A stretch of 63,344 nt of DNA, counting the filler. It is 14 parts of 14 records of this genome, joined end to end, with 100 filler letters (N's around TTAATTAATTAA, not from the genome) between each part and the next. Parts side by side here need not be neighbours in the genome. Positions count along the whole stretch, not along the records: positions 33,478 to 55,087 come from SRR9188676_2991; 13 more parts are not named here. One strand, given 5' to 3'. The translations under genes and the position numbers were made by a program. Under the pieces are notes generated by a model. The model searched no databases. It was not told the origin of the DNA and worked only from the letters and a program-made list of their open reading frames with translations. Below, in pieces: positions 46,493 through 51,031 of this stretch; position 1 is the stretch's first letter; every line of letters begins with the position of its first letter.

Positions 46493-47941
46493 CTATCCAA
46501 CTGAACCCTCTAATGATACTGCCAGCAATTTTTGTGCTTCAACAGCAAATTCCATTGGTAATTGGTTCAATACTTCTTTAGCATAACCGTTTACAATTAA
46601 AGCAACGGCTGCTTCAGTAGAAATACCACGTTGGTTACAATAGAACAATTGGTCTTCTCCGATTTTAGAAGTCGTTGCCTCGTGTTCTACAGTAGCCGTT
46701 TTATTTTTTACTTCAATATATGGGAAAGTATGCGCTCCACAACGGTCGCCCATTAAAAGAGAATCACATTGAGAGAAGTTACGAGCATTATCTGCACGTT
46801 TCATTACTTCTACTAATCCACGATATGAATTATGAGATTTACCAGCAGAAATACCTTTAGAAACAATTCTTGATTTAGTATTCTTACCAATGTGAATCAT
46901 TTTTGTACCAGTATCAGCTTGTTGCATATTATTTGTAACCGCAACTGAATAAAATTCACCAATAGAATTATCTCCTTTTAAAATAACAGAAGGATATTTC
47001 CACGTAATCGCCGAACCTGTTTCTACCTGCGTCCAAGAAATTTTAGAGTTTGCTCCTTCGCAAATACCACGTTTTGTTACGAAGTTATAAATTCCACCTT
47101 TTCCTTCTTTATCGCCAGGATACCAATTTTGTACAGTTGAGTATTTTACTTCAGCATTTTCATGAGCAACAATTTCAACTACCGCTGCGTGTAATTGATT
47201 TTCATCACGCTGAGGAGCTGTACAACCTTCTAAATAACTAACATAAGAACCTTCATCTGCAACAATCAAAGTACGTTCGAATTGTCCAGTTCCTGCGGCA
47301 TTAATACGGAAGTAGGTTGAAAGTTCCATCGGGCAACGAACACCTTTTGGAATATAGCAGAAAGAACCATCAGTAAATACTGCGGCATTGAGAGCTGAAA
47401 AGAAGTTATCTTTTACTGGCACAACTGAACCTAAATATTTTTTGATTAATTCCGGATGATCTTGAATTGCTTCCGACATCGAGCAGAAGATGATTCCTCT
47501 TTTCGCTAAATCTGCCTTAAAAGTAGTTGCTACCGAAACAGAGTCGATAACGGCATCAACAGCAACATTTGATAAACGTTTTTGTTCGTTTAATGAAATA
47601 CCTAATTTCTCAAAAGTAGCACGTAATTCTGGGTCAATATCATCTAATGATTCCAAAACTTTTGCTTGTTTTGGAGCAGAATAATATTTAACAGACTGAT
47701 AATCAACTGGTTTGTAATGAACGTTTGACCATTTCGGTTCTTCCATTGTCAACCAAGTACGGTAAGCACTTAGTCTTAAATCAAGCATCCATGCTGGTTC
47801 GTTTTTCTTTGTTGAAATCAATCTGATTACGTCTTCACTCAAACCTGCTGGCACTTCGTCAGTTTCGAAGTGACTTTGAAAACCATATTTGTACTCCGAG
47901 GAGGTAACTTCCTCTAATATATCAATTTCTTCTTTTGCCAT
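46493..47941 (-). CDS. sufB: Fe-S cluster assembly protein SufB
   Basis: [52 protein letters not shown]. Confidence 0.97.
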
Positions 47942-48045: not shown

Positions 48046-48519
48046 TTAACCTTTATAGCCAAAAGGTACTGAACGATTTATACTTTCTTCTAAAGAAATA
48101 AATGTTTCAGTTCTTTGAATGCCCTGTACTTTTTGAATTTTATCGTGAAGCACTTCTCTTAAATGAACAGTATCACGACAAACAATTTTCGCAAAAATTG
48201 AATAAATACCTGTTGTATAATTAATACTTACTACTTCTGGAATTTTGATAAGTTGTTCGGCAACTTCAGCATAGAGCGAGCTTTTATCTAAATAAATTCC
48301 CAAAAAGGCAGCAATGTCCCAACCCAATTTAGTATGGTCTATCACCAATTGTGAACCTTTAACAATTCCAGCTTGCTCCATTTTGCCCATTCTTACATGA
48401 ACGGTTCCGCCCGAAACATTGATTTTTTTACCAATTTCAGTGTAAGGCATGGTGGCATCCTGCATCAAAAGTCCTAAAATTTTCAAATCAGTTTCGTCGA
48501 TTTCGACATTCTTTTCCAT
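48046..48519 (-). CDS. asnC: Lrp/AsnC family regulator, AsnC-like
   Basis: HTH VSGGTVHVRMGKMEQAGIV and RAM domain YTTGIYSIFAKIVCRD..KIQKVQGIQRTET, closely paralleling E. coli AsnC; ATG at 48519. Confidence 0.88.
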   Translation of the reverse strand: MEKNVEIDETDLKILGLLMQDATMPYTEIGKKINVSGGTVHVRMGKMEQAGIVKGSQLVIDHTKLGWDIAAFLGIYLDKSSLYAEVAEQLIKIPEVVSINYTTGIYSIFAKIVCRDTVHLREVLHDKIQKVQGIQRTETFISLEESINRSVPFGYKG

Positions 48520-48657
48520 AATATAAGTATTTAGACTCAAATAAAATTTAAAATTTTACAAAAAACAACACTTTTGAAAAGAAATTATTAACAAATTTTA
48601 AATAAATCTACTCCACAATTGAATATAATGTAAATTTTAAGTTTTTTTTATGTAAAA

Positions 48658-48689
48658 TTTGCAAAATAATAAAAGGTGCGCTAACTTTG
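48658..48689 (+). promoter_or_regulatory. Consensus Bacteroidota promoter driving the tRNA-like RNA
   Basis: -33 TTTG (48658-61), 20-bp spacer, -7 TAACTTTG (48682-89). Confidence 0.8.
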
Positions 48690-48724
48690 CATTGTCAAGT
48701 TAAAAGAAACGAAGACAACCACAC

Positions 48725-48887
48725 TGTAGGGTGATGAAATTTGGCAGACGTACCCTCCTGTCTCGGGGGTGGTGAACATGAAATAAAGTAAGTGTAATGC
48801 CCATCGCAAGATGGACTGGGGTTGACCACCAGACTTTGTACTTTACCTAATCACACCGTGGAGGTTCGAATCCTTCTCCTACAGCCA
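48725..48887 (+). ncRNA. tRNA-Asp(GTC)-like RNA with a 90-nt branched variable arm
   Basis: Acceptor TGTAGGG/TCCTACA + G + CCA; class-II-like D arm ATG-AAATTTGGCAGA-CGT; anticodon arm CCCTC-CTGTCTC-GGGGG; T arm GGAGG-TTCGAAT-CCTTC; insertion at 48770-48859. Confidence 0.85.
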
Positions 48888-49023
48888 ATTATTTGATATA
48901 TTTTGAGGATAAATTGTTGTCAAAGCACAATTTTATTATTACCTTTATTCTCAAATTATCAGATTGACTACAAGATATCAAGTAGTTTTATTTGGTTTTT
49001 AGTTTGTTGATGAAGTGTAATTC

Positions 49024-49055
49024 AAAAAAGCAGTCTTTGTAAGTCTGCTTTTTTT
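49024..49055 (+). terminator. Intrinsic terminator downstream of the tRNA-like RNA
   Basis: AAAAAAGCAG-loop-CTGCTTTTTTT. Confidence 0.75.
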
Positions 49056-49074
49056 GTTTTCAGCCCTTATCAAT

Positions 49075-49111
49075 AAAAAGCCGTAGTATTTCAGGAATAC
49101 TACGGCTTTTT
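49075..49111 (-). terminator. Intrinsic terminator of the CocE/NonD gene
   Basis: AAAAAGCCGTAGTATT-loop-AATACTACGGCTTTTT. Confidence 0.85.
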
Positions 49112-49147
49112 ACTTTGAGTACTTATACTTATCTGAAATTCAAAAAA

Positions 49148-51031
49148 TCACTCCAAAATTCCCACTTTCAAATAACTTGCTGCAGATTTTTGATGGTAAA
49201 CTTTCTGAGTAGCTTTTTGATAATCCTTTTCTTCTGCTTTAAAAATATCCATAAACTTTTGCGGATTTCTGTCGGCAAAAGGAAAGCACGAACTTTGAAT
49301 TTGCACCATCATCTTATGCCCTTTCTTAAATGTGTGCAAAACATCTTGTAATTCCACATTTACACTTGTTACTTGATTAGGCACAAAAGGCTTTGGCTTT
49401 GAAATATCATCACGATATTTTCCTCTGAAAATTTCAGAACGAACTAATTGCTGATAATTTCCATAAATTACTTCAGGTCTTTTAGGATGTTCTGGAGCGT
49501 CGGCTGGATAAACATCAATTACTTTCACAATCCAATCAGCATCCGTTCCAGAAGTCGCCACTTTTAACATCGCTTTTATTTCTCCTGAAAGTGTGAGGTC
49601 TTTTTCTAAAACATCTGTTGAAAACGACAAAACATCTGGACGAGTATAAGCAAAGCGTTGGTCTTCTACCATATAATCTGCCGAAAACCCATCATTGATT
49701 TTAGAAGAAAAAGGAACAGGTCGATTTGGGTCTGAAACATAGTCAGAGAACGATTTTTCATTTGTTGGTGCAGAAAACGATAATTTACCATTTGAATGAA
49801 AGTATAGATTTTTCTCTTGTGTACCTTTTGCTGGATAAGTATCAAATGAACGCCATTTGTTTGTTCCAGTTTCAAAAAGAGTTGCTTCTGGTAAATCGAG
49901 TGGTTTTGAATCATCAATTAAATAGTAGTTGAAAAATTTAGCTTCAATATTTTCTTGATAAAATGGTGATACTTTTGAGCCAAAATCTACATCAGCAAGC
50001 ATTTGTCCAGACGAACCAGCCCATCCGCCATGAACCCAAGGACCAACTACAAAAATATTTTTGATATTAGGATTCTGTTTTTCGATAGCTTTATAAGTAT
50101 TGAACGTGCCATATAAATCTTGTTCGTCATACCAGCCACCAACTACCATCACAGCATGTTTAATACCTTTTAAATGAGGTAGAATATTTCTTTTCTTCCA
50201 ATGTTCATCATAACTTGGATGATCAAAATTGTCATGATAATAAACGTTTCTTCCTTTATAAAAACCGTCTTCTGAATTTTTGGTTGTTTTTACTTCATTC
50301 AAATAAAAATCATATCCATCAGGATTATTGTTTTCAAAATATGCTGGCGGACGAGTAATTGTTGGTTTTGTTTGTTCCTGAAAGAAATTATAAAAACCAA
50401 AATTGGCTGCAATCATAAATGCTCCGTTATGAAAAGCATCATCTCGCCAAAGGTCTGCCATTGGTGCTTGTGGAGAAGAAGCCATCAGAGCTGGATGTTC
50501 TGAAACGGCGCCAGCAGAAGTAAAAAAGCCAGGATATGAAATTCCCCATTGACCAACTTTCCCATTATTGTTATTGATATTTTTTGTCAGCCAATCGATA
50601 GTATCATAAGTATCTGTAGATTCGTCAATATCAGTTTTGGCTTTCTTTGTATCAAGATGAGGCGTCATTTCTACGAATTTTCCCTCTGAAGCCCATCTTC
50701 CTCTTACATCTTGATAAACTACGATGTAATTACTTCTCAACATAAATGGATTGGGACCGATTCTTTTTTTATACTTATCCGTTCCATAAGGCGAGCAAGT
50801 ATAAGGCGTTCTCTGCATCAAAATTGGATACTTTTTACTTTGGTCTTTCGGAGCATACACTTGTGTAAAAAGCTTGATTCCGTCACGCATTTGAACCATA
50901 AACTCCATTTTCTGATAATTTTCACGGATGTAAGCGCTGTCTTGAGCGACTGAAAAAGGATAAGGAGATTCCGTTTTTTGGGCATAACTACAAACAGGTA
51001 TTAGAAGTAGCCACAAGAAAAGTTTTTTCAT
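49148..51031 (-). CDS. CocE/NonD family serine hydrolase (alpha-amino acid ester hydrolase-like), exported
   Basis: Signal peptide; MRDGIKL, RTPY, QDVRGRWASEG, nucleophile GISYPG, GPWVHG. Confidence 0.9.
   Translation of the reverse strand: MKKLFLWLLLIPVCSYAQKTESPYPFSVAQDSAYIRENYQKMEFMVQMRDGIKLFTQVYAPKDQSKKYPILMQRTPYTCSPYGTDKYKKRIGPNPFMLRSNYIVVYQDVRGRWASEGKFVEMTPHLDTKKAKTDIDESTDTYDTIDWLTKNINNNNGKVGQWGISYPGFFTSAGAVSEHPALMASSPQAPMADLWRDDAFHNGAFMIAANFGFYNFFQEQTKPTITRPPAYFENNNPDGYDFYLNEVKTTKNSEDGFYKGRNVYYHDNFDHPSYDEHWKKRNILPHLKGIKHAVMVVGGWYDEQDLYGTFNTYKAIEKQNPNIKNIFVVGPWVHGGWAGSSGQMLADVDFGSKVSPFYQENIEAKFFNYYLIDDSKPLDLPEATLFETGTNKWRSFDTYPAKGTQEKNLYFHSNGKLSFSAPTNEKSFSDYVSDPNRPVPFSSKINDGFSADYMVEDQRFAYTRPDVLSFSTDVLEKDLTLSGEIKAMLKVATSGTDADWIVKVIDVYPADAPEHPKRPEVIYGNYQQLVRSEIFRGKYRDDISKPKPFVPNQVTSVNVELQDVLHTFKKGHKMMVQIQSSCFPFADRNPQKFMDIFKAEEKDYQKATQKVYHQKSAASYLKVGILE

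Follow-up and report, generated by a model that had tools for sequence, protein, structure and literature searches.

A tRNA-like RNA with a giant variable arm opposite an AsnC-type regulator gene: a family of the class Bacteroidia probably linked to AspRS and GatCAB

Introduction

What might a tRNA-shaped RNA be doing opposite an asnC-like gene? In E. coli, asnC and asnA form a divergent pair in which AsnC regulates asnA. In the stretch of DNA analysed here, referred to as the window (63,344 nucleotides including filler), a gene for an AsnC-type regulator stands divergent from an RNA of about 160 nt, read on the + strand at 48725-48884, that takes the form of a cloverleaf with a variable arm of about 90 nt. 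An initial annotation of this locus had remarked that the RNA unites the identity elements of aspartyl-tRNA synthetase (AspRS) with the U1-A72 pair favoured by the amidotransferase GatCAB, and had proposed that it is charged with aspartate, amidated to asparagine and kept off the ribosome, acting as a cofactor that supplies free asparagine. Our comparison of related genomes indicates that the RNA is a real, apparently undescribed family of tRNA-like kind across the class Bacteroidia, and that this family is probably linked to AspRS and GatCAB. As to function, we tentatively favour, with some reserve, a non-decoding partner of both enzymes that most likely undergoes aspartylation and amidation and is controlled by an AsnC-type regulator.

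The locus also touches a wider question, raised in the part of PMC4206432 on which we draw: why do bacteria such as Bdellovibrio and some Bacteroidetes, which have both the asparaginyl- and the glutaminyl-tRNA synthetase (AsnRS and GlnRS), keep GatCAB?

Results

A tRNA-shaped fold supported by comparison

The tRNA-shaped RNA in the window is more than a chance likeness, as judged from its relatives. ARAGORN, run on the window, called a tRNA-Ala elsewhere only, left the RNA locus uncalled and reported no tmRNA. Across 24 loci it called no long form; the one member of the family that it recognised was a 76-77-nt short form in genome G049, as 'tRNA-Asp (atc)'. A search of the RNA locus against Rfam 15 returned no tRNA (RF00005) or other family, either at the gathering score or at E<=10. 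Matches with E<=10 near the RNA proved to be chance alignments to hairpins downstream of it, and the sole Rfam trace of tmRNA (RF00023) was an 11-nt match to the T loop (5.8 bits, E 5.4). Since the single sequence folds like its shuffles (z 0.22), the support for the RNA is comparative.

With a 181-nt query, blastn matched 49 of 61 related genomes and found an identical (100%) copy in six species. In remoter genomes the match comprises a 5' part, from the acceptor strand to the anticodon arm, and a 3' part with the T arm and acceptor strand, and the middle differs in length. Thirty-two family members were brought together in an alignment (A1), and a cloverleaf of 27 pairs was tested against shuffles and against slid controls. 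In A1, 98.3% of cells are paired, as against 88.6% in the shuffles and 51-62% in the slid controls; 15 of the 27 pairs change on both sides, and none of 500 shuffles equalled the alignment on four of the five measures.

The cloverleaf so supported has an acceptor stem of 7 bp, a D arm with GG, an anticodon stem of 5 bp with a 7-nt loop and a T arm with UUCGA. All seven acceptor pairs and the entire anticodon stem are 100% paired in the 32 sequences, covariation is seen in three of the five anticodon-stem pairs and in two of the three D-stem pairs (AU, GC, UA; UA, CG, UG), and both GTTCGA and the GG of the D loop are invariant. In the window the acceptor stem is followed by U8 and G9, and the D arm resembles, by eye, that of tRNA-Leu in the nearest genome (hereafter the kin genome), a tRNA of the class II type. 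From 18 long forms, RNAalifold recovered every cloverleaf helix except the 3-bp D stem, together with three extra helices in the variable arm, and gave a near-invariant hairpin in the distal arm the consensus GGGGUUGACCAC(C). The window's hairpin GGGGUUGACCACC has a UUGA loop and a bulged A; it is almost unchanged across the long forms and missing in the short forms, and from its sequence it looks like a candidate site of specific binding or docking. Elsewhere in the arm, GAUAAA stands opposite UAA in an internal loop that we take to resemble the UAA/GAN motif.

A family found across the class

A covariance model (R1) built from A1, which scores 152 bits on the window, was used to survey two samples, 151 genomes of the class and 151 of the phylum; the 61 related genomes matched with blastn form a third sample, that of the order, and all three lie within one phylum. 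The class sample includes an unpublished genome, G293, which has gatB and asnS and lacks glnS and the RNA; it shifts the counts by one. At E<=1e-14 the model matched 29 of the 151 class-sample genomes, 28 with long forms and G049 with the short form. The long-form carriers span 16 GTDB families, to which the short form adds f13. In the phylum sample, elements of 109-212 nt scored at least 74 bits in 15 genomes, all of the window's class except G184, and the many matches of 82-86 nt at about 50-60 bits were class II tRNAs. Within the window's family the RNA is present in nearly every genome sampled, and several genomes hold two to four copies, some in tandem. The variable arm ranges across the family from about 5 nt (L096, in G049) to about 140 nt. 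The full-text literature, subscription journals and supplements not being covered, yielded no description of the RNA, and a term look-up in PMC7609411, a review of odd tRNAs, did not meet it under the terms used.

Synthetase and amidotransferase marks are kept and decoding marks drift

The identity positions were counted in a census of 74 family matches aligned to R1. U1-A72 and G2-C71 are present in all 74, as are U35, C36 and C38. G34 occurs in 70, the exceptions having the anticodons CUC (L036), UUC (both L067 copies) and AUC (L096), and G73 in 72, both exceptions being lower-scoring second copies. Second copies in genomes of family f63 (L141, L151) carry U73 and have lower scores. All five strong AspRS determinants (G34, U35, C36, C38 and G73) are found in the window. 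The features of decoding, U33 and a purine at 37, are not kept by the family: about a quarter of the 74 matches have G or C at position 33, and at position 37 U prevails, with G in five and C in three. The window itself has GUC at 48760-48762, followed by U37 at 48763 and C38, with no purine at 37. With the identity marks fixed and the decoding marks drifting, the family keeps the marks of synthetase and amidotransferase and lets those of decoding go.

The review PMC9976931 lists G73, G34, U35, C36 and C38 as strong aspartate determinants and G2-C71 as a minor one. It also describes U1-A72 as the pair that lets GatCAB amidate Asp-tRNA(Asn), with G1-C72 and U20a as the block on tRNA-Asp. The kin genome encodes a separate canonical tRNA-Asp (G1-C72, A37) and tRNA-Asn (U1-A72), and the hybrid make-up of the RNA is therefore real; its tRNA-Gln has U1-A72 and its tRNA-Glu G1-C72. 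The D loops of its tRNA-Asn and tRNA-Asp are equal in length and read GGTTA, that of the RNA reads GGCAGA or GGCAGC, and the numbering of U20a is ambiguous. At its 3' end the RNA is patterned like the kin genome's canonical tRNA genes, the discriminator being followed by C, with CCA sometimes encoded. Origin from one of the canonical tRNAs was considered and rejected: the core is identical to tRNA-Asp at 46 of 73 positions and to tRNA-Asn at 34 of 73, versus 49 of 73 for tRNA-Arg of the same genome. By sequence comparison, then, the core is a recent copy of none of the kin genome's tRNA-Asp, tRNA-Asn, tRNA-Gln or tRNA-Glu.

The sequence, the covariation and the census thus bear out the description from which we started, a tRNA-like RNA with the aspartate elements and U1-A72 opposite an asnC-like gene. 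Its companion claim, that U1-A72 and the aspartate anticodon would be conserved in homologues, holds throughout for U1-A72, U35 and C36 and nearly so for G34.

The neighbour is an AsnC-type regulator

The best PDB relative of the regulator encoded opposite the RNA is E. coli AsnC (2cg4, E 1.2e-30; Lrp, 3.7e-7). The two are identical at 62 of 148 aligned residues (42%) and have in common the stretch YTTG.YSIF.K..CR. The protein more likely begins with the ATG at 48519 (residue 8), its homologues aligning from residue 4-11 onward.

Linkage of the RNA to such a gene had been predicted for other genomes and was found there. In a tBLASTn search, 44 of the first 50 loci proved to have an AsnC homologue upstream in divergent orientation. 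The other six comprise three or four truncated at the end of a contig and two second copies of the RNA; in the genomes concerned, the other copy adjoins an AsnC homologue. In the class sample every one of the 28 carriers has an AsnC ortholog (at least 52% identity), which is adjacent and divergent in 25; the remaining three all belong to family f79. Among the phylum-sample loci AsnC is adjacent in nine of 13 informative cases, with exceptions in f28 and f30. Besides AsnC, present at 27 of 36 oriented loci, no widespread recurrent neighbour was found.

An AsnC ortholog is present in six genomes that have no long-form RNA. Their loci were searched for a shared alternative partner, which was rejected, as the neighbours (glycosyltransferase, DsbD, amidohydrolase, P5C reductase, LuxE-like, TPR and RecJ proteins among them) share nothing. 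Nor does asnA serve as such a partner: none of five asnA loci has an AsnC homologue within flanks of about 1.5 kb. Outside the class, locus L061 of G184 (contig C26) has the RNA with an adjacent AsnC ortholog, in one of 22 sampled genomes of one family; G184 has gatB and neither glnS nor asnS. The occurrence of the pair in this lone genome suggests that RNA and AsnC gene move as a unit.

Nearly all carriers of the RNA have gatB

The presence of gatCAB was judged by matches to gatB. In the class sample the RNA is found in 12 of 16 genomes with gatB, glnS and asnS, in 11 of 64 with gatB and asnS and no glnS, in five of 31 with gatB and neither synthetase gene, and in none of 40 without gatB. All 28 long-form carriers have gatB, as anticipated in the initial annotation; so do G049 and the five further carriers of the phylum sample. 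In families f69, f103, f25 and f23, the members that lack gatB also lack the RNA. The order sample gives 37 of 38 genomes with glnS and gatB (the exception is 85% complete), 11 of 20 with gatB and no glnS, and one of three (G005) with no gatB match.

Three of the four class-sample genomes with gatB, glnS and asnS that lack the RNA (G246, G284 and G317) have GatB joined to a second AspRS within the same open reading frame (ORF; Table 1), in addition to stand-alone AspRS, GlnRS and AsnRS. The fused AspRS has RDHG, like the mycobacterial non-discriminating AspRS, where E. coli has RDLG. Both the His in RDxG and a loop longer by two residues are unlike all 77 stand-alone copies examined. Such a fusion would couple AspRS and GatB physically, as a protein route to the same pairing.

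The type of AspRS was checked over the first 140 codons, taken from 80 places; these represent 77 class-sample genomes out of the 147 that had a match. Two sites that we took to be markers of discrimination read RD[L/K]G and SK-N alike in 20 AsnRS-less genomes (necessarily non-discriminating) and 18 GatB-less genomes (necessarily discriminating), and no column examined separates the two groups (best total-variation distance 0.5). Of the asparagine synthetase genes, asnA is present in five of 151 class-sample genomes, none of them a long-form carrier, and asnB-family genes in 136. The class-sample search found no asnB-family gene in G001, G211 or G257, and none was found in G007. Two of these, G001 and G007, belong to the window's genus, are 99% complete and have neither asnA nor an asnB-family gene; as far as tested they have AsnRS or GlnRS, one AspRS, and GatB.

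Features of the locus and its variants

Table 1. Coordinates of the RNA, its parts, the surrounding genes and the fusion ORFs of other genomes
Feature	Position	Strand	Remarks
tRNA-shaped RNA gene	48725-48887	+	160 nt to discriminator G73 (48884), then encoded CCA (48885-48887)
Acceptor stem, 5' strand UGUAGGG	48725-48731	+	pairs with 48877-48883: U1-A72, G2-C71, U3-A70
D arm	48734-48751	+	3-bp stem 48734-48736/48749-48751; G18 G19 equivalents 48743-48744 in loop
Anticodon arm	48753-48769	+	stem 48753-48757/48765-48769; loop 48758-48764 CUGUCUC
Giant variable arm	48770-48859	+	about 90 nt, branched
Variable arm, base stem	48771-48774 with 48854-48857	+	covaries; 4-nt bulge next
Variable arm, 3-bp stem	48779-48781 with 48851-48853	+	covaries
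Variable arm, internal loop GAUAAA / UAA-like	48782-48787 and 48848-48850	+	
Variable arm, 8-bp stem	48790-48797 with 48836-48843	+	RNAalifold; 5 of 8 pairs with double changes
Three-way junction hairpin, GCAA cap	48801-48814	+	variable hairpin (RNAalifold)
Three-way junction hairpin GGGGUUGACCACC	48818-48830	+	near-invariant (RNAalifold)
T arm GGAGG UUCGAAU CCUUC	48860-48876	+	100% paired; 4 of 5 pairs covary
3' trailer, non-conserved	48888-49056	+	imperfect hairpin and T run at about 49030-49055; contigs reach 48991-49033
Shared AT-rich divergent control region	48541-48724	.	between regulator gene and RNA
AsnC-subfamily (Lrp/AsnC) regulator gene	48046-48540	-	longest ORF, start TTG 48540; HTH_AsnC and AsnC_trans_reg Pfam domains
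sufB	46493-47941	-	flanking gene of the window locus
S15 X-Pro dipeptidyl peptidase	49148-51031	-	flanking gene, convergent to the RNA
GatB (N-terminal)-AspRS (C-terminal) fusion ORF	G246:C19:17848-21120		1110-1120 aa
GatB (N-terminal)-AspRS (C-terminal) fusion ORF	G284:C47:25678-28959		1110-1120 aa
GatB (N-terminal)-AspRS (C-terminal) fusion ORF	G317:C8:94937-98209		1110-1120 aa

The RNA has a candidate promoter of its own, made up of TTTG at 48658-48661 and TAACTTTG at 48682-48689, which conforms to TTTG...TAnnTTTG, presumably the Bacteroidota promoter consensus. Of 31 loci, 24 have TAnnTTTG at a distance of 26-77 nt before the RNA, and the leader before the 5' end of the RNA would be about 25-35 nt long. 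A sigma-70 scan of the + strand of the control region found nothing. An inverted-repeat scan, which attaches no significance value, marked AAATTTTAAA-like palindromic repeats at about 48543-48556, 48593-48603, 48631-48639 and 48650-48660.

Four RNA-type libraries have contigs over 48735-49033, a span that takes in the RNA and its trailer up to the imperfect hairpin and T run. Such contigs give neither ends nor levels; those of X6 and X7 are identical and perhaps one data set, and the parts of the stretch that X6, X7 and X13 leave without contig cover say nothing on transcription. In other genera a hairpin and T run follow within about 10-20 nt of the 3' end of the RNA, almost directly after it; the trailer therefore falls outside the conserved RNA, and maturation probably trims it off. 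At 48916, within the trailer, the window's G is a T in contigs from three RNA-library runs, most likely because the strains differ. A simple terminator scan found none here. Two hairpins with T or A runs, probably terminators, lie at 49008-49117 between the trailer and the peptidase gene, and draw weak chance matches in Rfam (rli61, StyR-44, STnc40).

On the other side, sufB follows the asnC-like gene directly on the same strand in the window and in eight of 36 oriented remoter loci; the regulator may therefore also be part of a suf transcription unit. A gene for a DUF819 membrane protein stands 3' of the RNA on the same strand at six loci (L029, L030, L031, L033, L037 and L046). After it, at L037 and L046, comes a gene for a translational GTPase with an EF-Tu-like GTP domain and EFG domains, which at L028 comes after the RNA.

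Among the copies of the RNA, arrays of two or three lying 100-220 nt apart were seen at L051:527-1099 (G059), L067:1501-1831 (G195) and L144 (G257). Arrays of this kind occur also at L148 (G288), L065 (G100), L040 and L041, and some genomes have extra unlinked copies. Two members (L136 in G272 and L143 in G255) combine an insertion of about 20 nt in the D loop with a long variable arm. The shortest member, at L096:538-614 (-) in G049 (contig C23), is the 76-77-nt form mentioned above, whose variable loop has the ordinary 5 nt and whose anticodon loop reads CUAUCUC. It has a promoter-like TAACTTTA of its own and a hairpin and T run immediately 3', and is not adjacent to the AsnC ortholog of G049, a genome with asnA and gatB and without glnS.

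Discussion

Conservation of the marks for AspRS and GatCAB without those for decoding is the pattern to be expected if the two enzymes, and not the ribosome, read the RNA. From sequence and arrangement we infer that the RNA is charged, amidated and shut out of the ribosome and that AsnC controls it; what becomes of the asparagine is likewise inferred. We envisage the following course. The RNA would be transcribed from its own promoter beside the gene of an AsnC-type, amino-acid-sensing regulator, which probably controls it, and would be trimmed like a tRNA. AspRS would charge it with aspartate by way of G34, U35, C36, C38 and G73, and GatCAB would accept the U1-A72 RNA and convert the bound aspartate to asparagine. 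Decoding would be prevented by the size of the variable arm, by U37 and by the laxity at position 33. The asparagine made on it outside translation might be freed, or might be formed within a complex of AspRS and GatCAB held by the RNA. We have settled on a partner of the two enzymes because a role in such a complex, as substrate or as scaffold, fits all carriers and has the GatB-AspRS fusion as its alternative.

The mechanism of an asparagine carrier is plausible as such. A more specific proposal would make the RNA a dedicated, non-translating carrier for the conversion of aspartate to asparagine, charged by a normal AspRS, amidated by GatCAB and switched by an AsnC-type regulator, and the reason why many Bacteroidia with GlnRS and AsnRS keep GatCAB, one family having swapped in the GatB-AspRS fusion. 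In this full form it seems to us doubtful, and the version in which the carrier supplies free asparagine must be placed equally low. The cofactor for free asparagine that was originally proposed accordingly finds only part of its case upheld. It gains from G001 and G007, which show neither asnA nor an asnB-family gene. It loses by the five of 28 carriers without AsnRS (G256, G272, G307, G339 and G340) and by G184, which have no clear use for free asparagine in tRNA charging, so that release for AsnRS is not the whole story. It loses also by the asnB-family genes of 25 of the 28 carriers, many of which may be paralogs.

Other observations weigh against a partner of AspRS and GatCAB under AsnC-type control. 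With regard to the regulator, its score against the NCBIfam AsnC equivalog NF008384 is 161.2 bits, below the cut-off of 227 (the next family scores 76), and since the putative promoter lies near consensus, an activator may not be needed. With regard to AspRS, G10 is an identity element in E. coli; the window has A at position 10, and in 32 sequences the 10-25 pair is A-U in 24, G-C in three and U-A in two. Class II synthetases face the variable-loop side of a tRNA, where an arm of 90 nt might get in the way of AspRS. Four of the 74 matches have C, U or A at position 34. Throughout the family G1-C72 is replaced by U1-A72, and according to PMC9976931 G1-C72 positions the 3' end in E. coli AspRS. 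With regard to GatCAB, 82 of 111 class-sample genomes with gatB lack the RNA, and one of the 49 order-sample carriers, G005 (77% complete), has no gatB match. The genomes being related to one another, the counts of co-occurrence overstate their independence. A conventional answer to the question of GatCAB retention also exists: the part of PMC4206432 considered here describes a single non-discriminating AspRS making asparagine on tRNA-Asn, shown in Bdellovibrio and suggested for Bacteroidetes. That answer may apply here, because the AspRS sequences of the class do not reveal their type.

The same conservation pattern is demanded by a role as scaffold or regulator of the transamidosome. The RNA would then bind AspRS by means of the anticodon loop and G73, and GatCAB by means of U1-A72, and would hold or tune the complex that makes Asn-tRNA(Asn), neither turning over as a carrier itself nor freeing asparagine. 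Some of the tRNAs bound in the Thermus transamidosome serve as scaffolds. A scaffold would suit carriers with and without AsnRS as well as the complementary distribution of the fusion in three genomes, and transamidosomes are described as tRNA-containing complexes in the passages of PMC9976931 relevant here. We nevertheless think a pure scaffold unlikely, given that so many gatB-bearing genomes manage without the RNA and that a conserved discriminator and tRNA-type 3' end are not obviously needed for it. The invariance of U1-A72 and the restriction to genomes with gatB are left unaccounted for if the RNA is a sensor or decoy that is never amidated, be it a mimic titrating AspRS, an RNA that signals the supply of aspartate or asparagine by its state of charging, or a regulatory RNA pairing through its GUCUC loop. 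The conserved UCUC beside variable positions 32-34 could be a site for pairing or for a protein, the distal hairpin GGGGUUGACCAC resembles a binding site, and the RNA adjoins a regulator of an amino-acid-sensing type; that hairpin is, however, missing from the short forms, and we give the idea little credence.

Retention of identity nucleotides with loss of decoding features would be equally natural in a donor, an RNA charged with aspartate or asparagine that feeds a transferase modifying envelope, lipid or peptide, much as special tRNA-Gly species serve peptidoglycan in Staphylococcus. A donor would be compatible with the presence or absence of AsnRS, yet no transferase gene recurs beside the RNA, where AsnC alone is frequent and DUF819 is found at six loci, and we consider it highly improbable. 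Barely credible, finally, is an ordinary decoding tRNA-Asp isoacceptor with an insertion in its variable region. The GUC anticodon, the cloverleaf with its T and D loops and the G37 of five matches speak for it. Set against these are the canonical tRNA-Asp that the kin genome also has, the prevalence of U37, the G or C at 33 in about a quarter of the matches, the A, C or U at 34 in four, U1-A72 in place of G1-C72, and a core no closer to tRNA-Asp (46 of 73) than to tRNA-Arg (49 of 73).

Whatever its function, the RNA is a widespread structured family (28 of 151 Bacteroidia genomes) that is not in Rfam and is invisible to tRNA finders, and it is a natural case in which synthetase identity is cleanly set apart from decoding features. 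Charging by AspRS and amidation by GatCAB, if they take place, would make it the first RNA maintained solely for building an amino acid on it outside translation, and would directly answer the question on GatCAB retention posed in the cited part of PMC4206432. Should the mechanism hold, it would represent a new use of the tRNA scaffold, and one that is easy to test, flavobacteria being genetically tractable.

The closest likeness among known systems is to tRNA-Asn of the indirect pathway. The two have in common U1-A72, G73 and the L-shape as well as an anticodon of the form GUN, for reading by a class IIb synthetase, and the proposed chemistry is alike, aspartate being attached and then amidated on the RNA (determinants as given in the consulted section of PMC9976931). 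The RNA differs in its 90-nt variable arm, in U37, in going uncalled as a tRNA, in coexisting with a normal tRNA-Asn, and in having GUC rather than GUU, so that a discriminating AspRS could charge it. The E. coli asnC-asnA pair is similar in that an AsnC-subfamily regulator diverges from its neighbour over a short AT-rich region; here the neighbour is an RNA gene and not asparagine synthetase A. tRNA-Sec has a long extra arm, carries an amino acid that is converted while esterified, leaves the normal EF-Tu route and decodes UGA with SelB. The long extra arm and odd structure recur in our RNA, for which conversion while esterified and avoidance of EF-Tu are only proposed; unlike tRNA-Sec it is expected not to decode, and its acceptor and T stems are of normal length, with 7 and 5 pairs. 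Class II tRNAs (Leu, Ser and Tyr) share with the RNA a D stem of 3 bp and an extended variable arm, and its D arm is near in sequence to that of the kin tRNA-Leu, but the variable arm of the RNA is four to eight times longer and branched, and G73 with GUC fits none of the three. With tmRNA it has in common a tRNA-like acceptor and T arm and, as predicted for the RNA, likely processing and charging; it differs in its complete anticodon arm, its length of 160 nt and the lack of a coding part. The GatB-AspRS fusion, lastly, occurs in genomes with GlnRS, AsnRS and GatB and would likewise couple AspRS with GatB, but it does so as a protein rather than an RNA, and in genomes from which the RNA is missing.

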